DNA from: Gemmatimonadales bacterium
GTDB taxonomy: Bacteria > Gemmatimonadota > Gemmatimonadetes > Gemmatimonadales > GWC2-71-9
Assembly (NCBI GenBank): GCA_025927545.1
Contig: JAICLE010000001.1
Location: 70,313-134,312, forward strand
Reading direction: 5' to 3'
DNA: 64,000 bases
Shown here: positions 770 through 18,553 of the stretch, piece after piece
How positions within the stretch are numbered: position 1 is the stretch's first letter
Layout of the letters: each line of letters opens with the position of its first letter
Translations under genes and position numbers: made by a program
The notes under the pieces: model-generated
What the model saw: the letters and a program-made list of their open reading frames with translations, nothing else
Database searches by the model: none
Told to the model about the DNA's origin: nothing

Positions 770-1294
770 TCAGCGGATCTCCAGCCGATACATCGCGTGG
801 CACGCGTTGCAGCGGCCGGTGATCCGTCCGAGCCCCGCGAGGATCGCGGCGGCATCCGGTCCGACGGCCGGCAGCGAGTCGAACGCGCGGTGAGTGTCGA
901 GCGCGAGCGCCATCCAGTCAGCCGGGAGCAGGGCCTCGAGCTCGGGGTCCGCGGCCATCGCCATCCCCGCCGGTCGGGCGGCGATCCGGACGGCGGCGGA
1001 GTCGCCTCTGGCGCCGGCCACGAGCACCCCCTGAACCGACTGGAGCATGATCCGCATCTCGGCCAGGACCGCCTCCCGAGCCGCGTTCGGCAGCGTCAGG
1101 GTGCGGCGGGGTGGAACCGGAGTACCGGGTGACGCGGAGTCAGCGGCGGCTGATGAGGCATGCGCATGAGTCCCGGCGTGGGCTGGCGAAGCCGCCTCTG
1201 CGCGGCGGCGCGTGGACAGCCCAATAGACCAGACCACATTCGCGGCCGTCCACAGTACCAGGCCCACGAGGACTGCCGTCTTGCCAAGGGACAT
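770..1294 (-). CDS. membrane-anchored class II c-type cytochrome (cytochrome c'/c556-like)
   Basis: 174-aa ORF with a GAGGAA RBS upstream of the ATG at 1294. It has an N-terminal hydrophobic anchor (AVLVGLVLWTAANVVWSIGL), a His/Ala/Pro-rich linker (PAHAGTHAHAS), and a helical domain ending CNACHAMYR. That is the C-terminal CxxCH..YR signature of class II cytochromes c. Confidence 0.55.
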   Translation of the reverse strand: MSLGKTAVLVGLVLWTAANVVWSIGLSTRRRAEAASPAHAGTHAHASSAAADSASPGTPVPPRRTLTLPNAAREAVLAEMRIMLQSVQGVLVAGARGDSAAVRIAARPAGMAMAADPELEALLPADWMALALDTHRAFDSLPAVGPDAAAILAGLGRITGRCNACHAMYRLEIR

Positions 1295-1382
1295 ACGTTC
1301 CTCGGGTCGAGTGCCAAGCCGAATATCGGCCGGCTTCTCCCGCTCATCAAGCGCGCTCGGAAAGTCTCGCGCAGGAGCCCTA

Positions 1383-1414
1383 TTGACTCTCTACCATGGT
1401 ATAGGGTGTATCCT
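1383..1414 (+). promoter_or_regulatory. MerR-family type promoter (long 20-bp spacer with internal dyad)
   Basis: TTGACT (1383-1388), 20 bp, TATCCT (1409-1414). The spacer carries the imperfect dyad ACTCTCTACCA|TGGTATAGGGT around CCATGG (9 of 11 positions pair). It lies 97 nt upstream of the MerR-like gene on the same strand. Confidence 0.5.
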
Positions 1415-1510
1415 GCCTTCACGTGAGGACCGAACCTCACTGGGGCCACCCGATGTGGACCTCACGACGTGGGAGATCACATGCGCCGACCAGCATCCGC
1501 CCACCCCGCC

Positions 1511-1960
1511 ATGACCGTCGGTCAGCTCGCGCGCCGGGCGGGCGTGGGGGTCCAGACGGTCCGCTATTACGAGCGGCGGCACCTGCTTCCGACCGCGGCC
1601 CGCCGCGCCTCGGGCTACCGGGAGTTCAGTCCGGCGGCGCTCGACCGGGTTCGCTTCATCCGGCGGGCGCAGGAGCTGGGCTTTACCCTGTCCGAAATCG
1701 CCGAGCTGCTCGCGCTCCGGCTCGATCCGCATACCACTGCGGCCGAGGTCAAGGCGCGAGCCGGGCAGAAGATCGACGAGATCGACGGAAAGATCCGCGA
1801 CCTCGAGCGGATCCGGCACGGGCTGACCCACCTGGCCGGGCGTTGTCGCGGCGGCCGCGGCCCCACGGGAGATTGCCCGCTGCTCGAGGCGCTCGGGCCA
1901 CTGAGCGGCGGAGCCGGGCACGAATCGGATCACCCCGTCACATCCAATCCGGGAGATTGA
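1511..1960 (+). CDS. MerR family transcriptional regulator, CueR-like metal-binding loop
   Basis: HTH MTVGQLARRAGVGVQTVRYYERRHLL, followed by a dimerisation helix and a C-terminal CRGGRGPTGDCPLLEAL loop (C-x9-C then PLLEAL, compare the CueR C-x7-C-PIIENL loop). Start placed at ATG 1511, just before the HTH; the ORF opens at 1469. Confidence 0.85.
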   Translation: MTVGQLARRAGVGVQTVRYYERRHLLPTAARRASGYREFSPAALDRVRFIRRAQELGFTLSEIAELLALRLDPHTTAAEVKARAGQKIDEIDGKIRDLERIRHGLTHLAGRCRGGRGPTGDCPLLEALGPLSGGAGHESDHPVTSNPGD

Positions 1961-1962
1961 CC

Positions 1963-2205
1963 ATGCCGACCACCGAACGCGAGCTGGACTGCACCTCCAC
2001 CGTACACGAGCTCATCGAGCAGCATCCTGCCACCCGAGCGGTTTTCCAGCGCTTGGGCATCGACACCTGCTGCGGCTCGGCCGTCAGCGTTCAGGAGGCT
2101 GCACAGCGAGACGGTCTCGATCCCAACCGGCTGTGCGGCGAGCTCAGGGCGGCGGTCGAGGCCGAGGGGAGCCCCATCGGATACCGAGCAATTCCGTCGG
2201 ATTGA
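1963..2205 (+). CDS. stand-alone ScdA_N / DUF542 domain protein (N-terminal domain of RIC iron-centre repair proteins)
   Basis: 80 aa. TVHELIEQHPATRAVFQRLGIDTCCGSAVSVQEAA matches the DUF542 pattern with its CCG motif. GGGAGA RBS lies 7 nt upstream, and the ATG is 2 nt after the merR-like stop. Confidence 0.75.
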   Translation: MPTTERELDCTSTVHELIEQHPATRAVFQRLGIDTCCGSAVSVQEAAQRDGLDPNRLCGELRAAVEAEGSPIGYRAIPSD

Positions 2206-2282
2206 GACAACCGTCACGCCGGTGCCGCGCGGAAGGCGCGATCGTTGGATTCAGTGAAGTGAATGGGGGCAAGGTGCGCGAA

Positions 2283-3398
2283 ATGGCAACTGCAGATTTC
2301 GAGTCGCCGGAAGCCACGGATGCCGGTGAGCTCACCGGCGAACGGGTCCGCGAGGTGTTGGCCACGGTCCGCTACCCGGGGCTCAGCCGGGATCTCGTCT
2401 CCTTCGGGATGGTGGAGCACGTGAGCGTCTGCGATCGGCGGGTGAAAGTACGGCTCGCGATCGCCACCCGCGATCCGGGCATCCCCGCGCAGCTCCGAAC
2501 CCGCATTGCCGACGCGCTCCTCCCACTGGGCGCCGCGACCGTTGCGGTCGAGATCGCACCGCCGAGCACGACGCCGAAGCCCACCGCGCGCGGCACGCCG
2601 GACCCATGGGCGGAGCAGGTCCGGCTCGCCGCGGTGCGGCACGTGGTGGCGGTCGGTGCGGGCAAGGGCGGCGTGGGGAAGAGCACGGTCGCGGCAAATC
2701 TGGCGCTGCTGCTGGCCCGCGAGGGACTGCGCGCGGGCCTGCTGGACGCCGACATCTATGGTCCGAGCCTGCCGTTGCTGCTGGGCATCGAGGACGGTGC
2801 CGGGCGCGTCCGGATGACGCCCGACAAGCACATCCTGCCGCTCGAGGCGCACGGGCTCCCGCTCATCAGCTTCGGCTTCTTTCTGGGCGAAGGCTCGCCC
2901 GCGATCTGGCGCGGACCGATGGTCTCCAAGGCGGTGAAGCAGTTCTCGCGCGGCGTGGCGTGGCCCGAACTCGACGTGCTGATCGTGGACCTCCCACCCG
3001 GTACGGGGGACATCCCGCTCAGCCTGGCGCAGGCCGTCGTGCTGTCCGGCGCGGTCGTGGTCACGCAGCCGGCCCGGGTGGCCACCGCGGAGGCGCGGAA
3101 GGCCGCCCAGATGTTCCAAACCCTGGAGGTGCCGGTACTCGGTATCGTGGAGAACATGGCCGGAGCGTTCGGGCACGGAGCAGGCGCGGCGATCGCCGCC
3201 GAGCTGGCGGTGCCCTTTCTCGGCTCGGTCCCGTTCGACGAGGGCATGGTGGCGGAAGGAGACGCCGGGATCCCGACGGCGCTCGCACGGCCGCGCAGCG
3301 AGGCCGCCCTGGCGATGGAGGTCGTCGCACACGCCGTCGCCTCGGCGCTGGGGTGGCAGCACGTGGCCGACGGGTCGGCCCCCGGGGCCGAGCGGTGA
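2283..3398 (+). CDS. apbC: Mrp/NBP35 (ApbC) family Fe-S cluster carrier ATPase with N-terminal DUF59-like domain
   Basis: Deviant Walker A GKGGVGKSTVAANLA, followed by DADIYGPSLP, and an N-terminal VREVLATVRYPGLSRDLVSFGMV region. The start could instead be GTG 2274. Confidence 0.9.
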   Translation: MATADFESPEATDAGELTGERVREVLATVRYPGLSRDLVSFGMVEHVSVCDRRVKVRLAIATRDPGIPAQLRTRIADALLPLGAATVAVEIAPPSTTPKPTARGTPDPWAEQVRLAAVRHVVAVGAGKGGVGKSTVAANLALLLAREGLRAGLLDADIYGPSLPLLLGIEDGAGRVRMTPDKHILPLEAHGLPLISFGFFLGEGSPAIWRGPMVSKAVKQFSRGVAWPELDVLIVDLPPGTGDIPLSLAQAVVLSGAVVVTQPARVATAEARKAAQMFQTLEVPVLGIVENMAGAFGHGAGAAIAAELAVPFLGSVPFDEGMVAEGDAGIPTALARPRSEAALAMEVVAHAVASALGWQHVADGSAPGAER

Positions 3399-4717
3399 CG
3401 CCGGCAGCGCCTGCGGCGCCTACTCGACCGGCCTTCACGCCGGGGCCGGGCGCGCCGGGCGGGCTCGCGCCCGCCCCGGGGTCCATCCGCCTGGCCGCCG
3501 AGCACTTCGTTGCCGCGGCGATCTACCTGCTGGCCGGCGCGCTCGGACTCCTCTGGGTGGCGCCGGAGCTCGCGGGCGGCGCATACCTCTCGCCCCATGT
3601 GGCCGGAGTCACCCACCTCTTCACCCTCGGCTGGCTCACGATGACGGCATTCGGGGCGCTCTGCCAGCTCCTGCCGGTGGCACTGGGCACGCCGGTGCGC
3701 TCGACCCGTCTGGCCCACGCGGGCTTCTGGGCGTTCGCGCCCGGCGTCGGCCTGTTCGCGGCGGGCGTTGCGACCAGCCAGGTGGCGCTGCACCACCTCG
3801 GGATCCTTCTGGTGGCCATCGGCATTCTGCTCGTGCTGTCGAATGTCGGCGGGGCGCTCCCGCGCGCTCGGACGCGAGACGTGACCTGGGCCGCGATCGC
3901 GCTGGCGCTCGGGTTCCTCGCATCCACCCTCGTGCTGGGGATCATCCTGCTCCACAACCTGCACACCGGCTTCATCGCCGGCGCACGGGACCGGGTGCTG
4001 GCGACGCACCTCCACGTCGCGATCGTGGGATGGCTGCTCATGATGATCGTGGGTGTGTCCCATCGGCTGCTGCCGATGTTCCTCCTGTCGCACGGTGCGG
4101 ACACGTCGTGGACCCGGCGCGCGCTCGCGCTGCTGGCCTCCGGCGTCGTGGTCCTCGGCACGGGTCTCACCTTGCAGCAGCCCGCGGCGGCCTGGGCGGG
4201 CGCGCTGCTGCTGCTGGGCGGGCTGGGGTGCTTTCTCCGCCAGGCCTGCGGGTTCTATCGGGCGCGGGTCCGGAAGAAGCTCGATGTGGGCATGCGGTTC
4301 GTCGCCACCGCGCTCGGGTTTCTCACGACGAGCGCCCTCCTGGGCGTGGCAGTGCTGGCAACCGGCGGCTCGGCGCCGCGGCTGGCCACCGCCTACGTGA
4401 TCGCCGGCCTTCTCGGAGGGATCGTGCTCTACGTCATCGGATTCTTCTACAAGATCGTGCCGCTCCTCGCCTGGACCGCGCGCTTCCGCGGCCGGATGGG
4501 AAAGGAGCCGGTGCCGACAGTCGCGCAGCTCTACTCCGCGCGGCTGGGCTACGTGCAGCTCGGGCTCATGGCCGGAGGAGTGGCGATTCTGGCGGCGGGC
4601 ACCGCCGCGGGCTCGGCGCACGCCGCCCGCTGTGGCGCGGTCCTCTTCCTGGGCGGAGTGCTCGTGTTCCTGGCCCAGCTCGGCCGCGTCGCCCGAGGGC
4701 GGGGAGCGGCGGCATGA
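3395..4717 (+). CDS. uncharacterised 12-TM His-rich membrane protein with three-fold internal repeat
   Basis: The GTG start overlaps the apbC stop (GTGA at 3395-3398). About 12 hydrophobic helices. A motif repeats in helices 2, 6 and 10: THLFTLGWLTMTAFGALCQLLPV / THLHVAIVGWLLMMIVGVSHRLLPMF / AYVIAGLLGGIVLYVIGFFYKIVPLL. The part of the 2606-4717 ORF upstream of 3395 is a shadow over apbC. Confidence 0.7.
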   Translation: MTPAAPAAPTRPAFTPGPGAPGGLAPAPGSIRLAAEHFVAAAIYLLAGALGLLWVAPELAGGAYLSPHVAGVTHLFTLGWLTMTAFGALCQLLPVALGTPVRSTRLAHAGFWAFAPGVGLFAAGVATSQVALHHLGILLVAIGILLVLSNVGGALPRARTRDVTWAAIALALGFLASTLVLGIILLHNLHTGFIAGARDRVLATHLHVAIVGWLLMMIVGVSHRLLPMFLLSHGADTSWTRRALALLASGVVVLGTGLTLQQPAAAWAGALLLLGGLGCFLRQACGFYRARVRKKLDVGMRFVATALGFLTTSALLGVAVLATGGSAPRLATAYVIAGLLGGIVLYVIGFFYKIVPLLAWTARFRGRMGKEPVPTVAQLYSARLGYVQLGLMAGGVAILAAGTAAGSAHAARCGAVLFLGGVLVFLAQLGRVARGRGAAA

Positions 4718-5583
4718 GCGGCGGCATCGGAGTCCGGCCGGTAGCGGCCGGCGATCGGGTCAGTGACGTGCTCGCGCGCGACGAGGCGCTGGTGGAAGTG
4801 TTCGTGCGCCAGTCGCACCACTTCACCAAGTTGCGCAACCGTACCATGCGCAAGGTCATGGCGCGGCTCGTCACCGTGGAGGATGCGGCCCGGATCGCGG
4901 GCGCCGACGCGGCGGCCCTCGTCGGGGAGCTCAACGCGGCGTTGGGGATCGTGTCGGATTCCGGGGCGCCCAGCGGCGTCGCCGACGAGGCGCGCGCCCT
5001 CCGTCCCGAAGCTTCGCCGGCAAGCGCGGCCCCCGGACGCCCCAGCGGCGCGAGGGTCATGGAGATCGATGTGCGGGAGGATCTCCGCGCCGGCCGAGAG
5101 CCATTCTCCAGGATCATCGCGGCCGTCCAAGCGGCAGGCGCCGGCGAGGTGCTGTGGCTCCGCGCGACGTTCGAGCCGGTGCCGCTCTACACCGTGCTCG
5201 CCAAGCGTGGATTCGTGCACGAGGCGAGAGCGGAGGGCCCGGAGGACTGGTCGGTCTGGTTCTGGCGGCCGGAGACGTCCGGGGGACAGCCGGCCGCCGC
5301 GGCGCCGCCGGCGGAGGCGGCCGATACGGAAGCTGCTTCGGAGGCTCCGCGAGAACCAGCCACCGCAACCGTCCGCCTCGACGTGCGCGGCCTCGAGCCG
5401 CCGGAGCCGATGGTCCGCACTCTCGCGGCACTGGAGACGCTGCCGGAGGGCCACACATTGGTGCAGATCAACGTGCGGGTGCCGCAGTTCCTGCTGCCGA
5501 TCCTCGCTGAGCGCGGCTATGCGTGGGAGGTGGACGAATCGCCTGCCGAGCACGTCGTCGTTCGGATCCGGCGGCGCACTTGA
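4714..5583 (+). CDS. DUF1858-like domain fused to two DUF2249-like (TusA/SirA-fold) domains
   Basis: The ATG overlaps the stop of the membrane gene (ATGA at 4714-4717). N-terminal VSDVLARDEALVEVFVRQSHHFTKLRNRTMRKVMARLVTVEDAARIAG is DUF1858-like. It is followed by MEIDVREDLRAGREPFSRII... and VRLDVRGLEPPEPMVRTLAALETLPEGHTLVQIN..., which are DUF2249-like repeats. Confidence 0.7.
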   Translation: MSGGIGVRPVAAGDRVSDVLARDEALVEVFVRQSHHFTKLRNRTMRKVMARLVTVEDAARIAGADAAALVGELNAALGIVSDSGAPSGVADEARALRPEASPASAAPGRPSGARVMEIDVREDLRAGREPFSRIIAAVQAAGAGEVLWLRATFEPVPLYTVLAKRGFVHEARAEGPEDWSVWFWRPETSGGQPAAAAPPAEAADTEAASEAPREPATATVRLDVRGLEPPEPMVRTLAALETLPEGHTLVQINVRVPQFLLPILAERGYAWEVDESPAEHVVVRIRRRT

Positions 5584-5701
5584 TCGGATCTTCACCCCGA
5601 GCGCGAGCGAGAGACCCAATCATCCGTTCCGGACGCACCGGCGGGAAGGCTGGGTGTCCAGCCACGCGATCATCATCCATCTCAAACCGGAGAATCAACC
5701 C

Positions 5702-5935
5702 ATGACCCCACAGACCCTCGAGCTCGACGTTCGCGCGATTCCGCCGCGGGAGAAGCATCCGTCCATCTTCCGCACGTTCGATGGGCTCTCGAGCGGCCAG
5801 GCGATGGTGATCATCAACGATCACGACCCGCGTCCGCTGCGCTACCAGTTCATGGCCGAGCGGGCCGACAGCTTCGACTGGCAGTACGAGGCGGAAGGGC
5901 CGGAGATCTGGCGGGTGCGCATCAGCCGGCGCTGA
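5702..5935 (+). CDS. DUF2249 domain protein
   Basis: 77 aa. LELDVRAIPPREKHPSIFRTFDGLSSGQAMVIINDHDPRPLRYQF...GPEIWRVRISRR follows the canonical DUF2249 pattern. GGAG RBS is 9 nt upstream. Confidence 0.8.
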   Translation: MTPQTLELDVRAIPPREKHPSIFRTFDGLSSGQAMVIINDHDPRPLRYQFMAERADSFDWQYEAEGPEIWRVRISRR

Positions 5936-5981
5936 GCACGAATTCCGGTTGACGCTGGGCGGAAGTGGCCTTCACTCGGTT

Positions 5982-6026
5982 GTCATCCTGAGGGTCCCTG
6001 AGCGCAGCGAAGGGGCCTGAAGGATC
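5982..6026. repeat. short hairpin-forming intergenic repeat (expanded copy), related to 26862-26886
   Basis: GTCATCCTGAG-GGTCCCTGAG-CGCAGCGAAGG-GGCCTGAAGGATC shares the TCATCCTGAG...GCGAAGGAT core with the second copy. It lies in the 202-nt gap between the DUF2249 and crp/fnr genes. Confidence 0.45.
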
Positions 6027-6137
6027 TACTCCGCCGGCGTCCGACCCATTCCCGGGCAAGTTCCCTCGCGTCCCCCCGGGAGGACAGTGCGAGGCATCGG
6101 GATGACTGAATTGGCTGAGCGACAAACCCGAAGCCCA

Positions 6138-6869
6138 TCAGCCGCCGTCTTCTTCATACCGCGGCCGCTCGCCGGGCCGCGCGAGGGTGCGGAGCTGCCC
6201 CACGTCGGGCAGCAGCAGACGGCGGCGGCCCTGCTCGATCACGAGCCCCTTCTCGCGGAGCTGCTTGAACGCGCGGGAGACGGATTCGCGAGCCGTGCCC
6301 AACTCGACCGACAGCGCCTCGCGCGTGCGGTCGAGCGTGACCACCACGCCGTCGGCGCTCTCGGTGCCGGTGCGATCGGCCAGGGCCGCCAGATAGAGCG
6401 CCAGCCGGGCGGCCACGTCGCGGAACGCGAGCGTCTGGGTGAGCTGGACCAGGTGGCGAAGGCGGCGCCCGAGGTCGCGGATGATCGCCGCGGCGACATC
6501 GGGGTCCGTGCGGTAGAGCGCCTCGAACTCGGCGCGGGGGACGAACAGCAGCACGCTCGGCTCCTCCGTGATGGCGGAGGCGGGGTAGGGGCCGCCGTCG
6601 AACAGCGGCAGCTCGGCCACGGGCTGGCCGGGACCCTCGGTGTGGAGCACCTGCTCGCGGCCGGAAGGACTTGCGCGGTAGATCCGGACGCGCCCGGAAG
6701 CGATGACGTAGAGGCCGCGGTACGGTTCGCCCGCGGTGAAGAGCAGGGAGCCGGCGGGATGACTGCGGAGCACGCTCCGCTGGGCCAGCCGGCGGAGCGC
6801 GGCCGGCTCGAACGCGGCGAAGAGGGGGAGCCGCTGCAGCAGGGCGACGGGATCGCCGGCGGGTGACAT
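6138..6869 (-). CDS. Crp/Fnr family transcriptional regulator (no N-terminal Cys cluster; Dnr/NnrR-like class)
   Basis: cNMP-binding-like beta-roll (LFTAGEPYRGLYVIASGRVRIYRASPSGREQVL) and a C-terminal HTH (TREALSVELGTARESVSRAFKQLREKGLV). Start at ATG 6869; the ORF extension to 7244 is Ser/Thr/Pro-rich with no recognisable domain and runs over the opposite-strand DUF59 gene. Confidence 0.85.
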   Translation of the reverse strand: MSPAGDPVALLQRLPLFAAFEPAALRRLAQRSVLRSHPAGSLLFTAGEPYRGLYVIASGRVRIYRASPSGREQVLHTEGPGQPVAELPLFDGGPYPASAITEEPSVLLFVPRAEFEALYRTDPDVAAAIIRDLGRRLRHLVQLTQTLAFRDVAARLALYLAALADRTGTESADGVVVTLDRTREALSVELGTARESVSRAFKQLREKGLVIEQGRRRLLLPDVGQLRTLARPGERPRYEEDGG

Positions 6870-6897
6870 GGTGCGCAATCTATCCGGGGAGGTTTCG

Positions 6898-7206
6898 ATG
6901 AGTGAGGCCGAGCAGTCCGTCGATCCGCGCCTCGATCCGCTGTGGCAGGCGCTGAGCTCGGTGATCGACCCGGAGATCGGGCTCGACATCGTCACGCTGG
7001 GCCTGGTGTACGACCTGGAGATCCGGGACGACGTCGCCCGGATCACCCACACGCTCACCACGCCCGGCTGCCCGATGGAGAAGGTCATCACGGACGGTAT
7101 CCGGAGTGCCGGGGCGATGGTGGAGGGCGTGCGGGGCGTGGAGACCGAGCTGGTGTGGGAGCCGGCGTGGCATCCGGGGATGATCTCGGGCGGCGGATTT
7201 TCCTGA
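6898..7206 (+). CDS. DUF59 (MIP18/SufT/PaaD-like) Fe-S assembly protein
   Basis: SSVIDPEIGLDIVTLGLVYDLEI...TLTTPGCPM is the classic DUF59 motif. GGGGAGG RBS is 7 nt before ATG 6898. Confidence 0.8.
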   Translation: MSEAEQSVDPRLDPLWQALSSVIDPEIGLDIVTLGLVYDLEIRDDVARITHTLTTPGCPMEKVITDGIRSAGAMVEGVRGVETELVWEPAWHPGMISGGGFS

Positions 7207-7251
7207 GCCGGAATCCCGCCGGCGGGTGTCCCGGAGGGGTCCAACCGAGGC

Positions 7252-7257
7252 TATATT
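7252..7257 (+). promoter_or_regulatory. possible -10 element (TATATT) for the tRNA-Cys gene
   Basis: This is the only AT-rich hexamer in the GC-rich gap, about 20 nt upstream of the tRNA 5' end. No convincing -35 element. Confidence 0.3.
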
Positions 7258-7277
7258 ACGCGCCCGTGCGGGTCCCG

Positions 7278-7348
<71 letters not shown>

Positions 7349-7571
7349 CTCGTCGAAGTATTGCCTCTGCCCGCCGTGTCGCCATCTCACGCTCGTGCTC
7401 TGGACACTGCCTGCCGATCCATTCCGTGCGCGTCCGGCACCGTATCTCTTCCCCATCCGCCCCGCACTCCGCCCTCTCGAATGGCCGCATAGCTCGCAGG
7501 GTCGCTGACCGGTCGGCGAAGGCATCGCGGCCTCCGCGTCGTGCCAGGCACGTATCCGGAGGGGTTGAGCC

Positions 7572-9041
7572 ATGTCACTCCAGGTGACACGCCAGCTCGT
7601 CGGCCTCGGAGCGGGCCGAGCCGCGCATCGAACGGTTCATGCGTGGCTCCTCACCCTCGGCTTTGCAATCGCCGGGACCGCCGCCGGCGCCGGTCGGCTG
7701 CCAGCACAGGTCGAACACCAGCATCACGACTCGACGGCAGCCCAAGCGGCAAGCATGTCCAGCATGCCGCCCATGCCGGGCATGCCGCGGCGCCCCTTCG
7801 GCATCCCGATGACCCGCATGGGCTCAGGGACCACCTGGCTTCCCGATGCGTCCTCCATGAGGGCCTGGCACTTCACGGCCGGCCCCTGGATGCTGATGGT
7901 GCACGGCGACGCATTCCTGCAGTTCGATCATCAGGGTGGCCCCCGGGGGGACGACCAGATCGGGAGCATCAATTGGGGGATGCTGATGGCGATGCGCCAG
8001 CTGGCCGGCGGCACGCTGCACCTGCACGGCATGGCGAGCGCGGAGCCGCTCACGATCGGCAGGCAGGGGTATCCGCTCCTGCTGCAGAGCGGCGAGACCT
8101 TCCGAGGCGTGCCGCTCCACGACCGGCAGCACCCGCACGACCTGTTCATGGAGCTCTCGGCCTTCTACGAGCGGCCTATCACCCGGCGAGTCGGCTTCAT
8201 GGTGTACGCGGCGCCGGTGGGAGAACCGGGGATCGGGCCCGTGGCCTACATGCACCGCCCCTCGGCCCTGAACGACCCCTTCGCGCCGCTGTCGCACCAC
8301 TGGACCGACGCCACGCACATCACCTATGGGGTGCTCACGGCGGGGCTCTTCAGCCGCACGCTCAAGCTGGAAGGCACGCTGTTCAACGGACGCGAGCCGG
8401 ACGAAGATCGTTACGATTTCGACTTCCACCCGCTCGATTCCTACGGGCTCCGCCTGTCGGCAAACCCGACGCCGCACTGGGCCCTGAGCGGGAGCTATGG
8501 CTACCTGAAGCAGCCCGAAGCACTTCATCCGGAAGAAAACCAGCGTCGCCTCGGCGCGTCCGTGCTGCACACGGTGCGGCTGGGCCGCCAGGTCGAGTGG
8601 GCATCCGCGCTGATCTACGGCGGCAACAAGCATGTGACGCCAGGCGGAGCGGAAGCCGGACGCTGGGAGCACAGCCTCATGGCCGAGTCCAACCTGCAGC
8701 TCGACGCGGCCAACACGGTCTTCGGGAGAGTCGAGTACGTGCGCAAGAGCGCTGAGGACCTGGTCATTCCCGCGACGCCGGACCAGGAGTTCGACGTCGG
8801 CACGCTTGCGCTCGGCTACGTTCGCGAGCTCGCCGACTTCCGCGGCGCGACACTCGGGCTCGGCGCCCGCGGGGCGATCAACCTGGTGCCGCGGACGCTC
8901 GAGGGCGTGTACGGGAGCCGGACCCCCGTGGGAGTCGCCGTGTTTCTCCGCGTTCGGCCGAGGCTGCTCGAGGGCGCGCACGCGATGGATGCCGAGATGC
9001 ACGCGGCACGGAGTGACACGACGGGTGGGTGGCCACCGTGA
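7572..9041 (+). CDS. Met/His-rich secreted, probably outer-membrane beta-barrel, protein of unknown family
   Basis: GGAGGGG RBS. N-terminal signal-like segment, then QVEHQHHDSTAAQAASMSSMPPMPGMPRRPFGIPMTRM, followed by beta-strand-like alternation (FDVGTLALGYVRELADFRGATLGLGARGAINLV). The 3' end overlaps the start of the CopB-type ATPase gene. Confidence 0.6.
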   Translation: MSLQVTRQLVGLGAGRAAHRTVHAWLLTLGFAIAGTAAGAGRLPAQVEHQHHDSTAAQAASMSSMPPMPGMPRRPFGIPMTRMGSGTTWLPDASSMRAWHFTAGPWMLMVHGDAFLQFDHQGGPRGDDQIGSINWGMLMAMRQLAGGTLHLHGMASAEPLTIGRQGYPLLLQSGETFRGVPLHDRQHPHDLFMELSAFYERPITRRVGFMVYAAPVGEPGIGPVAYMHRPSALNDPFAPLSHHWTDATHITYGVLTAGLFSRTLKLEGTLFNGREPDEDRYDFDFHPLDSYGLRLSANPTPHWALSGSYGYLKQPEALHPEENQRRLGASVLHTVRLGRQVEWASALIYGGNKHVTPGGAEAGRWEHSLMAESNLQLDAANTVFGRVEYVRKSAEDLVIPATPDQEFDVGTLALGYVRELADFRGATLGLGARGAINLVPRTLEGVYGSRTPVGVAVFLRVRPRLLEGAHAMDAEMHAARSDTTGGWPP

Positions 9042-11083
9042 GCCCGGGGGAGCCACACGCGCATCGCGCGCACCACCACGAGGGCCACCCGCCCGGCGCG
9101 GCTCACGACAAGCACGCCGGCCACAGCGTGGCGATGTTCCGCGACAGGTTCTGGCTCACCCTGCTCCTGACCATTCCGACCCTCATCTGGGGCCACATGC
9201 TCCAGAGCGTGCTCGGTTATCGGGCGCCGCAGTTCCCCGGCTCGGGCTGGATCCCACCGCTCTTCGGCACCGTGGTCTTCTTCTACGGCGGGTGGCCGTT
9301 CATCCAGGGCGCCGTGCGCGAGCTCCGCGACCGGCTGCCTGGGATGATGACGCTCATCGCGCTGGCCATCGCGGTCGCCTTCGGCTTCAGCGCCGCCGTC
9401 ACGCTGGGCTATCCCGGCATGCCGCTCTGGGAAGAGCTCGCGACGCTGGTCGCCATCATGCTGCTGGGACACTGGATCGAGATGCGCTCCATCTCCCAGG
9501 CCCAGGGCGCCCTGGCCGAGCTGGTCAAGCTGCTGCCGAACACGGCCACGCGGGTGGTTGCCGGCGGCGGCCCGGAACGCCTCGAGGAAGTGCCGCTCGC
9601 GGCGCTCGCCGACCGGGATCTGGTGCTGGTCCGGCCCGGCGCCAGCGTGCCCGCGGACGGCGTGGTGCGCTCGGGCCGCAGCGCGCTCGACGAATCGATG
9701 ATCACCGGTGAATCCCGCCGGGTCGACAAGGCCGAGGGGGACACCGTCATCGCGGGGACGGTCAATGGCGGCGGCTCGCTCCGGGTCGCGGTGACCGGGA
9801 CCGCTGAGCGGACGATGCTGGCGGCCATCATGCGCCTGGTCGAGCAGGCCCAGACCTCGCGCAGCCGAGCGCAGGCGCTGGCCGACCGGGCCGCGTTCTG
9901 GCTCACGGTCGTGGCGCTCGTGGCGGGGGCCGTGACGCTAGTCGCGTGGCTTGCCGCGGGGGCGGAGCCGGCCTACGCCGTGGAGCGGCTGGTCACCGTG
10001 CTGGTCATCGCCTGTCCGCACGCGCTCGGGCTGGCGGTCCCGCTCGTGATCGCGATCTCGACCACGCTGGGGGCGCGGAGCGGCCTGCTGGTCCGCGACC
10101 GGCGCGGCCTGGAGGAGGCGCGGCTGCTCGACGCCGTGGTGTTCGATAAGACGGGCACCCTCACGCTCGGGTCGCACCGGGTCGTGAGCACGCGGATGGC
10201 CGCTGACGTGAGCGAGGTGGAAGCGCTCCGGCTCGCCGCCGCGGTGGAACGGGACGCCGAGCACCCGATCGGCCGGGCGATCGTGGCGAGCGCCCGGGAG
10301 CGCGGGCTCGAGATCCCGATGGCCGCGGACTTCGTAGCCATTCCGGGTCGGGGTGTGCAAGCCGTGGTGGAGGGACGACGCTTGGCCGCCGGCGGCCCCA
10401 ACCTGCTCCGCGAGGCAGGGCTCGCTCAGCCCACCGAGCTGCAGGCGTTTGCCGTTGAGGCGGCGGCGCGCGGCCAGGGAGTCGTGTACCTGCTCGAGGG
10501 CGACCGTGTTCTCGCGGCGTTCGCCGTCGCCGACGCGGTGCGGCCCGAGTCACGGGAAGCCGTCCGGCGGTTACACGAGCTGGGGATCGGGGTGGTCATG
10601 ATGACGGGCGACGCTCAGGCGGTCGCCGACGCGGTGGCCCGGGAGCTCGGCATCGACACCGTGTTCGCGCAGGTGCTGCCGGGAGACAAGGCGGCGCGCA
10701 TCGAGGCGTTGCAGCGCGGAGGGAAGCGGGTGGCGATGGTGGGTGACGGCGTGAACGATGCGCCCGCGCTGGTGACCGCGGACGTCGGTATCGCCATCGG
10801 GGCCGGCACCGACGTGGCGGTCGAGGCGGGCGACGTGGTGCTGGTTCGGAGCGACCCGCGCGACGTGCCGCGGATCGTGGCGCTGAGCCGGGCGAGCTAC
10901 CGGAAGATGGTGCAGAACCTCTGGTGGGCCGCCGGGTACAATATTGTGGCCATCCCGCTCGCGGCCGGCGTTCTGGCGCCGATCGGCGTGGTGCTCTCGC
11001 CGGCGGTCGGGGCGGTGCTGATGTCGCTCAGCACCGTGATCGTGGCCGTCAACGCGCAACTGCTGCGGCGGGCGCACGTGTGA
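9029..11083 (+). CDS. copB: heavy-metal (copper) translocating P1B-type ATPase, CopB-like (CPH motif, His-rich N-terminus)
   Basis: His-rich N-terminus HAHRAHHHEGHPPGAAHDKHAGH, TM motif ACPHALGLAVP, DKTGTLT, AEHPIGRAIV, MTGD, GDGVNDAPAL. GTG start at 9029, or GTG 9038 forming a GTGA overlap with the upstream stop. Confidence 0.9.
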   Translation: MATVSPGEPHAHRAHHHEGHPPGAAHDKHAGHSVAMFRDRFWLTLLLTIPTLIWGHMLQSVLGYRAPQFPGSGWIPPLFGTVVFFYGGWPFIQGAVRELRDRLPGMMTLIALAIAVAFGFSAAVTLGYPGMPLWEELATLVAIMLLGHWIEMRSISQAQGALAELVKLLPNTATRVVAGGGPERLEEVPLAALADRDLVLVRPGASVPADGVVRSGRSALDESMITGESRRVDKAEGDTVIAGTVNGGGSLRVAVTGTAERTMLAAIMRLVEQAQTSRSRAQALADRAAFWLTVVALVAGAVTLVAWLAAGAEPAYAVERLVTVLVIACPHALGLAVPLVIAISTTLGARSGLLVRDRRGLEEARLLDAVVFDKTGTLTLGSHRVVSTRMAADVSEVEALRLAAAVERDAEHPIGRAIVASARERGLEIPMAADFVAIPGRGVQAVVEGRRLAAGGPNLLREAGLAQPTELQAFAVEAAARGQGVVYLLEGDRVLAAFAVADAVRPESREAVRRLHELGIGVVMMTGDAQAVADAVARELGIDTVFAQVLPGDKAARIEALQRGGKRVAMVGDGVNDAPALVTADVGIAIGAGTDVAVEAGDVVLVRSDPRDVPRIVALSRASYRKMVQNLWWAAGYNIVAIPLAAGVLAPIGVVLSPAVGAVLMSLSTVIVAVNAQLLRRAHV

Positions 11084-12551: not shown

Positions 12552-14159
12552 ATGCAGCCTCGCGCCCTCTCGCTGTTCCTCGTCCTCCTGACTCCGATCG
12601 GCACCGCCGCCGCGGCGCCTCCGCCACAACGGCCCTCTCTGGCATACAGTATCGATCTCAACCGGCGCGCGGACGATCTTTTCCACGTGACGCTCCGAGT
12701 CGCCGGGCTCACGAAGGCAAACGCGATCTACCAGTTCGCCGCCACCGCGCCGGGCACCTACGAAACCATGAATATCGGGCGCTACGTGAAGACGTTCGAG
12801 GCGCTGGACGCCCGGGGACGGCGGGTGCCCATCGACCGGATCGGCGTGAACCAGTGGCGGCTCTCGCAGCCAGCGAGAGTCCGGACCATCCGGTACGCCG
12901 TATCCGAAACCTGGGACAGCCCGCTCGACCACCCGATCTACCGGATGTGCGGCACCTCCATCGAGAACGATCACGTGCTGATCAACCCCCACGCCGTGAT
13001 CGGCTATCCGGAAGGCCTCCAGGCCGCGCCGGTGCGGCTCCGGCTGGCCTATCCAGCCGCATGGCAGGCGGGCACCGCCCTCAAGCGCGGCCCCGACGGC
13101 GTCTACGTGGCCGACAGCTACGACCAGCTGGTGGATTCCCCGATCCTGCTCGGCCGGCTTTCCAAGGCGCGCCTGGTGGTGACCGGAGTGCCGATCGACG
13201 TCTACACCTACTCCGCCACCGGGAAGATCAGGTCGTCCCAGCTCCTCGGCTCGATGAGCGGGATGCTCCACGCCGCCGGCAAATTTCTTGGCCGGCTGCC
13301 GGTGGACCGCTACACCTTCCTCTACCATTTCGGCGACTCCGCGGCGGGTGCCTGGGAGCACTCGTACAGCTCCGAGTACGTGCTGCGGGAGGGCGAGTTC
13401 ACCGATTCGGTGGGCCGGCGAGTGACCGACATCGCCGCTCACGAGTTCTTTCACGTCGTGACCCCGCTCAACATTCACAGCGAGATCATCGAGCATTTCA
13501 ACTTCGTCACGCCCGTGCCCTCGCGGCACCTCTGGCTGTATGAGGGCACCACGGAGTGGGCGGCGCACGACATGCAGCTCCGGGCCGGCCTGGTGACGCT
13601 GGAGGCCTACCTTCAGACCCAGATAGGCAAGATGCAGGTCGCCCGCCAGAGGTTCGACAGCACCTGGAGCCTGCTCAAGCTGTCGCTCACCTCCTACAGC
13701 GACTCGGGCCAGGCGCAGTACGGCAACATCTACCAGCGCGGCGCGCTCACCGCGGGGCTGCTCGACATCCGGCTCCTCGAGCTCTCGCACGGCGATCGCG
13801 GGCTCCGCGATCTCATCATCGAGCTGACGCACCGGTACGGGAAGCGCCGGGCGTTCCCCGACTCGACGTTCGTGGATACGCTGGTGGCGATGACCTACCC
13901 CGAGATCCGGGAGTTCTTCGACCGCTACGTCCTGCACGCGCAGCACCTGCCGATCAGGGAGTACTACGCCAGGCTCGGCATCACCCTGATCCAGGATGAC
14001 AGGGGGCAGCCGGTCCGCTTCGAGATCAACCCGAGCCCCACGCCGGGGCAGCTCGCGCTGCGCGAGGCCTGGCTCGGGAGGGCGGTCAGGAGTAGTAGCG
14101 CTTCAGGTAAGCGGCGACGCCGTCGAGGTCGGGAAAGAGCCGGCGCTCGTCGACGCTGA
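12552..14159 (+). CDS. secreted zinc metallopeptidase, M61-like (HExxH...E)
   Basis: Signal peptide, HEFFHVV followed by LYEGTTEWAAH. It is a paralogue-like relative of 16659-18491 but has no obvious PDZ. The last ~24 codons overlap the convergent FRG gene. Confidence 0.75.
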   Translation: MQPRALSLFLVLLTPIGTAAAAPPPQRPSLAYSIDLNRRADDLFHVTLRVAGLTKANAIYQFAATAPGTYETMNIGRYVKTFEALDARGRRVPIDRIGVNQWRLSQPARVRTIRYAVSETWDSPLDHPIYRMCGTSIENDHVLINPHAVIGYPEGLQAAPVRLRLAYPAAWQAGTALKRGPDGVYVADSYDQLVDSPILLGRLSKARLVVTGVPIDVYTYSATGKIRSSQLLGSMSGMLHAAGKFLGRLPVDRYTFLYHFGDSAAGAWEHSYSSEYVLREGEFTDSVGRRVTDIAAHEFFHVVTPLNIHSEIIEHFNFVTPVPSRHLWLYEGTTEWAAHDMQLRAGLVTLEAYLQTQIGKMQVARQRFDSTWSLLKLSLTSYSDSGQAQYGNIYQRGALTAGLLDIRLLELSHGDRGLRDLIIELTHRYGKRRAFPDSTFVDTLVAMTYPEIREFFDRYVLHAQHLPIREYYARLGITLIQDDRGQPVRFEINPSPTPGQLALREAWLGRAVRSSSASGKRRRRRGRERAGARRR

Positions 14160-16658: not shown

Positions 16659-18491
16659 CTATTGTGCCGTCGTCCCCCGGAGGATCCCCTCCCTTACCCG
16701 CACCGCCTTGGCCGACGCAGTCGGGTCGATCGTCAGCCGGTTCTCCACCCGGGTCACCAGCCGCACCTCCCCGTTCAGTGTCATCGTCCGGCCATCGCGG
16801 CGCACCTCGATAGGCAGCGGCTGCCCCGCCTCCTTCCCGAACCGTTCGCGGAACTGCTCACCGAAGGTGGAGTCGGTGACCGCGATACCACCAAGTCGGA
16901 GGAGCACGTCATCCGGCTTCACGCCGGCCTCTCCCGCCGCGCTGCCGGGATCGACCTGCTTGATCACGATGCCGCCTGTCGAGTCCATCGCGGTGGCGAT
17001 GCCGAGACGCGCCTCCCGGATGGTGTCGGCCACCTCGCGGAGCCCGGCCAGCGGGAGCACCTGCGCCCAGGGGTAGGGCACGCGGCCGTCCACGTACCGG
17101 GCCGCGAAATCCTTGAAGCTCTTTCCGGCTGCGTTGCGTGAGACCGCGCGCCACCAATCCGCCCCCGTGAAGCCGCGGCCCGCCTTGTAGGTGGAGCGGT
17201 AGAGCTCCCGCATGACGTCGTCCAGCGAGTGGCGATTGTCGCTCGCGTCCCGGATGAGCACGTCGAGCAGGAGGCCGGCGAGCGACCCCTTGGGGTAGTA
17301 GAGATAGGAGCTGCCGTCGGTCGGGTGGATCCAGGTCGAGAGCGAGGCGTCCTCGAGCGCCGTGGGCGGCGCCTCCGACAGCTTGCCGATCTTCTCGCTG
17401 GTGACGCCCAGGAACTGGGCGCTGTCGATGATCCCGCCGCGCAGGATCGCGAGGTCGGCGTAGTAGTCGGTGATGCCTTCGCTCACCCAGAGCCAGGGCG
17501 TCGGCTCGCTTCGGTCGTACCGGTACGGCACCATGTCCGCCGGCCGGAGCCGCTTCACGTTCCAGGCGTGGAAGATCTCGTGCGCCGTGATCGAGGCGAG
17601 GATGGGATTCCCGATGAACTGAGGGCTGTAGATGCCCACGTGGGAGTTGGTGTGCTCCAGCGCGCTCCCGCCGCCGTAGGAGGAGTCGAAGATCATCATC
17701 ACCGTGTAGTGCGGCCACGGCGTCTCGCGGAACACGGCGGCCTCGGCGGGGATCATCTTTCCGATCTCGTCCCACGTCTGCGCCCGCGCGGGGCCGGTCA
17801 TCGCTCCCGCCGGATAGGTGGCCAAACGGGTCCAGACCCCCGCCACCCTGGCACTGTCGTAATCCATCCGGCCCACGAAGAACGGCTTGTCCACGAGGTC
17901 GTGATAGTTCCCCTCGTGGTACGTGCCCGCCCGTTGCGGTACGGCCTGCATGCCCGTGGCAATGAGCCAGCCGGGCTCGGTCTTGATCGTCACCGTGGCG
18001 GGAAAGTTGGTGCCGCGCCCCTCGGGGTAGAGCAGGACATTGGTGCCGTTGAACAGGGCGAAATCGGGCCGGGACCACGCCATCGCATTGTCCAGCGAAT
18101 CGGCGAGGTAGTCGAACCGTACCGTCACCGACCGGGCCCCGGCCGGCAGCAGCCGCCAGGTGTCGTAGTCGAGCTTGTCCCAGGCCAGTGCCCTGCCGGC
18201 CGCCCGCGGGTTGAAGTTGGAGACCCAGCGCGCGAAGAAGCTCAGCTCGTAGGCGCCCGGCGTCCACGCCGGAAGCGAGAGCAGCACCGGCCCCGACCCC
18301 GCGACGTCGAAGCTCATCGCGACCTTGATCGTCCGGGATCGCGCGGTGCTCGAGTCGAAGGTGATCTCGTAGCGCACGTTCCCGATGGGAGCCGATACCG
18401 GCGCGGTGGTGCGCTGGGCCGCGGCCGGCGCGGCGGCCAGTGCCCCGATGGCGATCACCAGACCCGACCCGGGCAGGAACCTGCGACGCAT
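16659..18491 (-). CDS. M61 family peptidase with C-terminal PDZ domain
   Basis: HEIFHAWNV...WVSEGITDYY and PDZ GGIVIKQVDPGSAAGEAGVKPDDVLLRLGG. Start at ATG 18491 (GAGG RBS, giving signal peptide MRRRFLPGSGLVIAIGALAAAPAAAQ) is preferred over ATG 18518. Confidence 0.85.
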   Translation of the reverse strand: MRRRFLPGSGLVIAIGALAAAPAAAQRTTAPVSAPIGNVRYEITFDSSTARSRTIKVAMSFDVAGSGPVLLSLPAWTPGAYELSFFARWVSNFNPRAAGRALAWDKLDYDTWRLLPAGARSVTVRFDYLADSLDNAMAWSRPDFALFNGTNVLLYPEGRGTNFPATVTIKTEPGWLIATGMQAVPQRAGTYHEGNYHDLVDKPFFVGRMDYDSARVAGVWTRLATYPAGAMTGPARAQTWDEIGKMIPAEAAVFRETPWPHYTVMMIFDSSYGGGSALEHTNSHVGIYSPQFIGNPILASITAHEIFHAWNVKRLRPADMVPYRYDRSEPTPWLWVSEGITDYYADLAILRGGIIDSAQFLGVTSEKIGKLSEAPPTALEDASLSTWIHPTDGSSYLYYPKGSLAGLLLDVLIRDASDNRHSLDDVMRELYRSTYKAGRGFTGADWWRAVSRNAAGKSFKDFAARYVDGRVPYPWAQVLPLAGLREVADTIREARLGIATAMDSTGGIVIKQVDPGSAAGEAGVKPDDVLLRLGGIAVTDSTFGEQFRERFGKEAGQPLPIEVRRDGRTMTLNGEVRLVTRVENRLTIDPTASAKAVRVREGILRGTTAQ

Positions 18492-18553
18492 GCGGACGCC
18501 TCGTGTGAGAGGATTCATGAGCCGGACGAACGGAGGTGAAGGGTGCGCCTGCC

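Follow-up and report, generated by a model that had tools for sequence, protein, structure and literature searches.

A divergent relative of heme-copper oxidase subunit I with two invariant histidines in a conserved, iron-sulfur-linked gene module of Gemmatimonadota

A 64,000-nucleotide stretch of the genome of a Gemmatimonadales bacterium (contig JAICLE010000001.1, positions 70,313 to 134,312; the window) encodes, at positions 3395-4717, a 440-residue membrane protein that is a divergent relative of the catalytic subunit I of heme-copper oxidases (HCOs) and nitric oxide (NO) reductases, with the same 12-helix, three-fold pseudosymmetric fold. The absence of five of the six metal-ligand histidines of those enzymes rules it out as a canonical oxidase or NO reductase. 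The family to which it belongs is held together instead by two other histidines, H74 and H205, which are predicted to face a pore that stands empty in the respiratory enzymes and may hold a single heme there. This two-histidine core, the fold, the gene neighborhood with its natural fusions and the literature on the partner proteins together lead us to a heme- and NO-linked function: we posit, with about even confidence, that the protein is the single-heme membrane partner of a module that protects or repairs iron-sulfur (Fe-S) proteins and is linked to nitrosative stress or denitrification.

The HCO superfamily underlies both aerobic respiration and NO reduction, and the origin of its 12-helix catalytic subunit is debated. 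A preliminary description of the window had proposed, at low confidence, that the protein could be a divergent scaffold of this kind, and the comparisons made here bear the proposal out. Homology emerges from the family rather than from the single sequence. The window protein scores below threshold against Pfam COX1 (PF00115; E 0.035, 13.4 bits against a cut-off of 34.8), has no Pfam match above cut-off and belongs to no NCBIfam family, and neither the protein itself nor a profile of its close homologs finds a match in a sequence search of the PDB. A profile built from 73 diverse members was the only query to reach CcoN (E 2.4e-10) and NorB (E 4e-4). COX1 is matched by 25 of 38 close homologs and 47 of the 73 diverse members (best E 1.3e-17), and an hhalign comparison of the family with CcoN, represented by six C-family subunit I sequences taken from plasmids, gives a probability of 95.5 % (E 1.5e-8). 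Structure points the same way. In a Foldseek search of the PDB with an AlphaFold2 model computed from 38 homologs (mean predicted local distance difference test score 84.1, predicted template modeling score 0.85), the top 20 matches are all CcoN, NorB, qNOR or COX1, led by CcoN (8smr_E and 3mk7_A, template modeling scores 0.71-0.72) and NorB (4xyd_A and 3o0r_B, 0.70-0.71). Scores of 0.23 or less are all that transporter folds (MATE, MFS, membrane pyrophosphatase) reach; this result and the Pfam and NCBIfam searches, which return neither a transporter family nor NnrS, CopD or CtaG, agree with the preliminary description, which had not recognized the protein as NnrS, CopD or a standard transporter. 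The family is large: it yields more than 1200 matches in a 90 %-clustered database, all annotated "hypothetical protein," and 2555 clusters at 50 % identity (E<=1e-3), almost all of 420-450 residues. One longer member (P0148) has 862 residues, and its additional part carries no Pfam domain.

Hydropathy and the AlphaFold2 model agree on 12 transmembrane helices, the number first estimated from the sequence, at residues 28-60, 67-97, 104-127, 130-157, 163-191, 195-230, 239-259, 263-290, 298-326, 328-367, 382-405 and 408-433. Arginine and lysine are concentrated at both termini and in the loops that follow helices 2, 4, 6, 8 and 10; positive charges in the even-numbered loops imply an N-in/C-in topology in which helices 2, 6 and 10 begin on the periplasmic side. 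Within the membrane, the 73-member alignment contains the conserved polar residues Q91, N150, N188, R224 and K353. Besides the fold and the sequence homology, the protein shares with CcoN and NorB a similar length, the N-in/C-in orientation and a motif, H-x(4)-G-W ... G-x(6)-P, that recurs in helices 2, 6 and 10.

That motif is precisely what the module alignments superpose, and the reading of the protein as three repeats of a four-helix unit, each with the motif in its second helix, is thereby confirmed. Pairs of modules align over 124-129 columns with hhalign probabilities of 98.4-98.6 % (E 1e-15 to 6e-15), module 1 matching modules 2 and 3 at 98.4 and 98.6 %, respectively, and when the alignment is thinned to six sequences the pairs still reach 88-95 % (E 3e-6 to 7e-8). 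The three-repeat architecture is thus far above chance. The modules of CcoN resemble one another less (91 %, 53 % and 16 %, from an alignment of only six sequences); at matched alignment depth the internal symmetry is still greater in the family studied here, by a smaller difference. Module 3 is the one without histidine ligands: its HxH positions are A333 and V335, with Y334 between them, and Y334 and K353 are kept in 56 and 60 of the 73 members.

A circular permutation of an oxidase was considered because helices 1-4 find their best alignment in CcoN helices 9-12. We dropped this idea as unproven and reject it because all three modules match CcoN module 3 (helices 9-12) best, at 97.4 % (E 1.4e-11), 90.7 % and 91.2 % for modules 1, 2 and 3; on these alignments, the signal reflects module 3 as the most prototypical unit and no rearrangement. 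Free-standing relatives of a single unit also exist. In seven related loci, proteins of about 150 residues with four helices and the motif SAHTHAI.VGF...LFPRP are encoded no more than 7 kb from the 12-helix gene; they match one module of the 12-helix family (E 1e-9 to 1e-13) and positions 313-391 of Pfam COX1 (E 9e-12). The window itself contains no such gene. These HxH proteins might form an oxidase-like homotrimer, and a homotrimer proposal for YgdD/DUF423 is discussed in a paper that cites Pei et al. 2014. The single-unit four-helix HCO homologs, Pfam DUF2871 for example, differ from the window protein in having one module where it has three fused.

The histidines that drew attention to the protein, H68, H74, H133, H134, H187, H190, H205, H207 and H223, are all present, and they are conserved to very different degrees. 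In a census of 120 full-length representatives of 50 %-identity clusters, H74 is histidine in all 120 and H205 in 119 of 119; across the 73 aligned members, which extend down to 22 % identity, these two are the sole invariant histidines (H74 in 73/73). H207 follows at 84/120, about 70 %. The others listed occur in 3-25 of the 120: H68 in 25, H223 in 13, H190 in 12, H134 in 9, H187 in 6 and H133 in 3. H233 (71), H37 (63) and H108 (12) complete the counts. An H / HH / HxH binuclear center, of which this pattern had seemed reminiscent in the preliminary description, is therefore not a property of the family. In the 38 close Gemmatimonadota homologs (64-93 % identity) the picture changes: H74, H108, H134, H187, H205, H207 and H223 are all invariant, and the clade carries some six conserved histidines beyond the family pair. 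These alignments make the HH pair, like the helix-5 histidines, a trait of the window's own Gemmatimonadota clade.

Where these residues fall on the oxidase plan can be read from the module alignments. The ligands of CcoN, in Pseudomonas nitroreducens numbering, are H68 of helix II, H215 of helix VI, H265/H266 of helix VII and H353-x-H355 of helix X. H205-L-H207 in helix 6 is placed on H353-V-H355, and V72-T-H74 in helix 2 and A333-Y334-V335 in helix 10 fall on the same three helix-X positions, so that H74 corresponds to the second and H205 to the first histidine of the CcoN HxH. The helix-II histidine of CcoN aligns at the first position (CcoN module 1 against module 3, 91 %), and a comparison of module 2 of the window protein with CcoN module 1 pairs H205 with CcoN H68, at 45 %. 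In CcoN helices VI and X, as in helices 2 and 6 of the window protein, 20 residues separate the second position from the conserved proline, which implies that the second position is the counterpart of the helix-VI CuB ligand. Read colinearly, the window protein retains a histidine at just one of the six canonical ligand sites, H207 at the helix-VI CuB position; V72 stands at the helix-II site, A333 and V335 stand at the helix-X sites, and no histidine occurs in helix 7 (239-259). The notion of an oxidase pattern shifted by four helices survives in part. It makes geometric sense for H74 and for the helix-6 HxH, the latter having the spacing of CcoN helix X to the G-W and proline anchors, but not for the HH pair, which sits where helix 4 begins and is clade specific; the equivalent of the helix-VII HH pair is G124/V125.

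As a catalytic HCO or NO reductase subunit, then, the protein has the 12-helix pseudosymmetric fold and the homology and lacks the six-histidine ligand set: the helix-II ligand (V72), the helix-VII HH pair and the helix-X histidines are missing. It also lacks company. No gene for an electron-entry subunit (CcoO/CcoP, NorC or CoxB/CyoA) is among the operon neighbors in the window or in 83 related loci, whereas ccoNOQP operons fetched as comparators carry their expected partner genes. Matches of 35-38 % identity found on Ralstonia and Acetobacter plasmids by tblastn were set aside as relatives and served only as comparators, since they belong to unremarkable, divergent operons of the cbb3 type that include genes for subunit II and cytochrome c. 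Two of these encode divergent cbb3-like subunits I that are 27-29 % identical to CcoN and retain all six ligand histidines, on a Ralstonia solanacearum megaplasmid (L001:6864-10498) and an Acetobacter ascendens plasmid (L006:2378-6724); their neighbors are subunit II, cytochrome c and, in Ralstonia, an SCO protein.

The position of the invariant pair suggests what it might do. In the oxidase structure, reportedly as laid out by Iwata et al. in 1995, each pore is formed by a four-helix arc together with the final helix of the arc before it. The pore of arc XI-XII-I-II contains the low-spin heme, which is bound by helix II at the first position and by helix X at the second, and the high-spin heme and CuB share the pore of arc VII-X, with ligands from helix X (first), helix VI (second) and the HH pair of helix VII. 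It follows from this layout that a first-position residue faces the pore of its own arc and a second-position residue the next pore; by that rule H74 (second) and H205 (first) would point into one pore, that of arc 3-6. We infer from the alignments and this understanding of oxidase architecture that the two residues share one pore, formed by helix 2 and helices 3-6 (pore A), which is empty in real oxidases and would hold the cofactor here. One b-type heme probably sits near the periplasmic side of pore A, where H74 and H205 would be its axial ligands. The site would be the rotational equivalent either of the bis-histidine low-spin heme site of helices X and II or of a pocket with a proximal and a distal histidine. 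Because only two histidines are universal, one heme fits and a heme-copper center does not.

The gene supplies the membrane protein of a conserved module whose members are translationally coupled. Its GTG start overlaps the stop codon of the upstream ApbC gene (GTGA), and its TGA stop (4715-4717) shares the ATGA at 4714-4717 with the ATG of the downstream DrpB-like gene; these overlaps imply translational coupling on both sides. In 83 loci retrieved with the close-homolog profile, all from Gemmatimonadota, the commonest order is ApbC, 12-helix gene, DrpB-like gene, DrpA-like gene, and the individual partners recur to the extent listed in Table 1. The assignment of ApbC by Pfam is joined by an NCBIfam ApbC match of 2.8e-74 that falls under the curated cut-off. 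ApbC and DUF59 proteins are Fe-S carriers and maturation factors, and the RIC/YtfE proteins, which repair iron centers, have ScdA_N as their N-terminal domain. The Crp/Fnr-family gene converges on the end of the operon, and its product lacks the N-terminal cysteine cluster.

The same partners accompany distant members. At 40 % identity, in a Longimicrobiales-like clade (locus L087), the order is ScdA_N, 12-helix gene, DUF59 and DUF2249, with ScdA_N directly upstream; another distant member (P0264) has Crp, 2xDUF2249 and DUF59 in its neighborhood, a third adjoins a gene for a NirK-like copper oxidase, and a further one has no informative neighbors. Metagenomes supply natural fusions of the family to DUF2249 plus ScdA_N (P0162) and to DUF59 (P0234, P0244 and P0382), and an apparent fusion of an ApbC fragment to the family (P0163). 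The fused domains lie at the C-terminus, which implies a cytoplasmic location. Synteny and fusions thus show who the partners are, and physical contact among them may be surmised. This context points to Fe-S handling linked to NO or denitrification, or to sensing.

The partner literature has the same flavor. In Thermus, the DUF2249 proteins DrpA and DrpB control the expression of the dnr and nar operons in nitrate respiration, and DrpB attaches to the cytoplasmic membrane even though it has no transmembrane segment. The two genes 3' of the 12-helix gene match DrpA and DrpB in architecture, as partners and not as homologs of the membrane protein itself; the Thermus drp order is reversed relative to the window, and the Thermus paper reports no HCO-like membrane partner. 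Denitrifying conditions induce all four DUF2249 genes of Haloferax, among them an ApbC-DUF2249 fusion in the nar operon. The closest functional analog is NnrS, a 12-transmembrane-helix protein found in NO-responsive regulons that is reported to contain heme and copper and contributes to NO resistance. NnrS shares the helix number and the NO association and differs in gene neighborhood. Its profile (PF05940, gathering score 28 bits) does not match the window protein at E<=1 and weakly matches 3 of the 73 family members (best E 4.2e-4), against the 47 matched by COX1.

These properties are together those of a class already predicted. Pei, Li, Kinch and Grishin are said to have defined, in 2014 and by computation, "HCO homology" (HCOH) proteins, which reportedly comprise single-unit four-helix families resembling helices 9-12 and three-unit, 12-helix families that include NnrS; we take it, then, that NnrS was put in the same class. 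Most of the three-unit families are said to have two conserved histidines, a single predicted heme and a denitrification or NO-detoxification context. The family described here re-derives these traits independently: three four-helix units related to oxidase helices 9-12, two conserved histidines with the next best, H207, far behind, a single predicted heme, links to denitrification, NO and DUF2249, and stand-alone four-helix relatives. It is best filed as a member of the HCOH kind, by the description of that kind as we know it and not by a match to one named HCOH family. The concept is no surprise given that analysis; to our knowledge, HCOH-type proteins have never been studied experimentally. 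Possibly new are the placement of the invariant pair in a normally empty pore, the Gemmatimonadota operon with ApbC, DrpB-like and DrpA-like genes together with the fusions, and the histidine enrichment by which the clade departs from the HCOH description. The Haloferax paper credits Pei et al. 2014 with the link between DUF2249 and the HCO superfamily, and papers that cite the 2014 study bear out its scope.

We favor a protective role like that of NnrS. The heme in pore A would bind NO or another small redox-active gas within the membrane, the partner proteins would dock on the cytoplasmic face, and through them the protein could protect or repair Fe-S and iron centers in nitrosative stress or denitrification. 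Several observations weigh against this proposal. The distance and geometry between H74 and H205 derive from homology and the cofactor is a predicted one; the register that puts the canonical helix-II histidine at the first position is moderately supported, and hhalign places the CcoN helix-VI histidine ambiguously, needing a two-residue gap. The heme is predicted near the periplasmic face and the partner domains are all cytoplasmic, so that the route linking them is hypothetical. No gene for a denitrification enzyme lies in the 64-kb window, and a Pfam scan of the part outside the module finds housekeeping functions only. No convincing FNR/Dnr box was found upstream of the operon: the window holds 10 matches against 3.6 expected, none of them 5' of the operon, and two lie within it, TTGGTGCAGATCAA (one mismatch) at 5458-5471 inside the DrpB-like gene, about 230 nt 5' of the DrpA-like start, and ATGGTGATCATCAA (two mismatches) at 5804-5817 inside the DrpA-like gene. 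A scan of positions 1200-7400 for sigma-70 promoters and terminators also found nothing. Finally, the choice between a protective and a sensory role depends solely on which partners occur.

The main rival, possible if on balance unlikely, is sensing by way of the Drp-like proteins. The protein would be a membrane heme sensor that relays NO, O2 or a redox change to the DrpB-like and DrpA-like proteins and thereby modulates the neighboring Crp/Dnr-type regulator, as proposed for Thermus. Control of dnr and nar by the Thermus pair, and the membrane attachment of a DrpB that lacks transmembrane segments and so implies a membrane partner, speak for it, as do the identical DUF1858-DUF2249-DUF2249 architecture of the window's DrpB-like protein and the Crp-family gene that stands beside the operon in half of the related loci (42/83) and next to a distant member. 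Pure signaling would leave unexplained, however, why ApbC and DUF59 are linked or fused at least as tightly as the Drp-like proteins; the silence of the Thermus work on an HCO-like partner and the lack of an FNR-type box 5' of the operon do not help it either. One could also dispense with the cofactor and regard the protein as a scaffold that anchors ScdA_N, DUF2249, DUF59 and ApbC at the membrane, its histidines being structural. The loss of five of six canonical ligands and the fusions that put partners at the cytoplasmic C-terminus suit this quite improbable alternative, but two intramembrane histidines that are homologous to heme ligands and invariant down to 22 % identity are hard to explain without a ligand. 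The proposal that we consider least probable of all is a metal conduit, in which pseudosymmetric pores lined by histidines and polar residues move iron or copper to or from the ApbC/DUF59 machinery. A histidine-lined copper channel had been offered as the alternative to an oxidase-like scaffold, and the comparisons lend it no support. The five conserved polar residues inside the helices, the adjoining Fe-S carrier genes and a copper P-type ATPase gene 4 kb downstream in the window would accord with such a path; the ATPase and its neighbor, however, occur in only 2 of the 83 related loci, the nearest folds are redox enzymes and not transporters, and two invariant histidines at heme-ligand positions better suit a cofactor than a translocation path.

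The clade-specific histidines keep a further interpretation alive at low probability. In the Gemmatimonadales/Gemmatimonadaceae subfamily of the Gemmatimonadota, pore A could have become, or have stayed, a catalytic pocket in which H205 ligates a heme and a second metal, copper or iron, is bound by H74 with H133/H134 and H187/H190, and perhaps H68, making the protein a new, minimal single-subunit reductase of NO or O2 whose site is rotated by one module with respect to every known family member. The invariance of H134, H187, H108 and H223 and near invariance of H190 in the 38 close homologs would be accounted for, and H133/H134 and H187/H190 lie no more than one helical turn from where helices 4 and 5 end on the periplasmic side, both helices being part of the arc of the H74/H205 pore. 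The succession H ... HH ... HxH also resembles that of the oxidases moved by four helices. These extra histidines are present, however, in just 3-13 of the 120 representatives, the HH pair is off the helix-VII equivalent, the conserved operon encodes no CcoO- or NorC-type electron donor, and, although 10 of 13 histidines are at least 90 % conserved in the close clade, so are about half of all alignment columns, which leaves the figure not clearly above background. We consider a binuclear center improbable and favor the single heme. If the rotated-site reductase were real, it and the four-helix HxH proteins found close to the gene in some genomes would amount to a living intermediate in the triplication that yielded the respiratory oxidases.

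Clear three-fold symmetry at the sequence level, an apparently "wrong" cofactor pore and co-occurring single-module relatives make the family a good experimental handle on the history of the oxidases. It is also a widespread, wholly unannotated membrane family tied to ApbC, DUF59, ScdA_N, DUF1858 and DUF2249, partner domains that are found repeatedly in gene clusters for NO stress and denitrification; working out the role of one component would probably account for the others.

Table 1. Features of the 12-helix gene and its operon in the window, and single-module relatives in related loci (coordinates with an L prefix refer to the locus named; occurrence is given over the 83 related loci)
Feature	Position	Strand	Evidence and occurrence
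MerR-family regulator	1469-1960	+	Directly 5' of the ScdA_N gene, same strand; 9/83
ScdA_N (DUF542) small protein	1963-2205	+	Pfam E 3.4e-12; 33/83
ApbC/Mrp-type Fe-S carrier ATPase with N-terminal DUF59	2283-3398	+	Pfam ParA/NUBPL 6.5e-77, FeS_assembly_P; 66/83, directly upstream
12-helix HCOH-type membrane protein, 440 residues	3395-4717	+	GTG start, TGA stop; translation, Foldseek, profile match
Repeat module 1, residues 28-160, helices 1-4	3476-3874	+	hhalign; of the three modules closest to CcoN helices 9-12
H74 codon	3614-3616	+	Helix 2
H133-H134 codons	3791-3796	+	Start of helix 4
Repeat module 2, residues 161-295, helices 5-8	3875-4279	+	Holds H205-L-H207 in helix 6; hhalign internal repeats
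H205 codon	4007-4009	+	Helix 6
H207 codon	4013-4015	+	Helix 6
Repeat module 3, residues 296-436, helices 9-12	4280-4702	+	hhalign against modules 1 and 2
DrpB-like protein, DUF1858 and two DUF2249	4714-5583	+	Pfam; 77/83
DrpA-like protein, single DUF2249, 77 residues	5702-5935	+	Pfam E 1.6e-30; 67/83
Crp/Fnr-family regulator	6138-6869	-	Pfam cNMP_binding and HTH_Crp_2; 42/83
Stand-alone DUF59 protein (FeS_assembly_P, SufT-like)	6868-7206	+	Pfam E 3e-16; 53/83
Four-helix single-module protein	L087:10906-11361	+	HxH motif
Four-helix single-module protein	L019:9121-9702	+	HxH motif
Four-helix single-module protein	L057:2335-3273	+	HxH motif
Four-helix single-module protein	L012:429-887	-	HxH motif
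Four-helix single-module protein	L056:3768-4223	-	HxH motif
Four-helix single-module protein	L025:137-592	-	HxH motif
Four-helix single-module protein	L086:654-1136	-	HxH motif

The surroundings of the operon are mixed. The tRNA-Cys (GCA) gene at 7278-7349 (+) lies directly 3' of the DUF59 gene. Further downstream on the same strand, a gene (7572-9041) for a 489-residue protein that is His/Met-rich in its N-terminal region and unmatched in Pfam overlaps the start of the gene for the P-type ATPase (9029-11083), whose N-terminus is His-rich (HAHRAHHHEGH...); the two are probably a copper or heavy-metal export pair, and their rarity in the related loci places them outside the conserved module. 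On the minus strand at 770-1294, a 174-residue open reading frame without a Pfam match combines an N-terminal hydrophobic segment with a C-terminal CNACH, a heme c motif of the CxxCH type, and recurs in one related locus; its product may be cytochrome c'-like. The M61 glycyl-aminopeptidase genes at 12552-14156 (+) and 16662-18518 (-), separated by a few kb, are paralogs, and one of the two includes a PDZ domain. The rest of the window, which has a G+C content of about 70 %, is of a housekeeping character and includes a transketolase, a fused 2-oxoglutarate dehydrogenase E1/E2, a TonB receptor/SusD pair and two Ser/Thr kinases.

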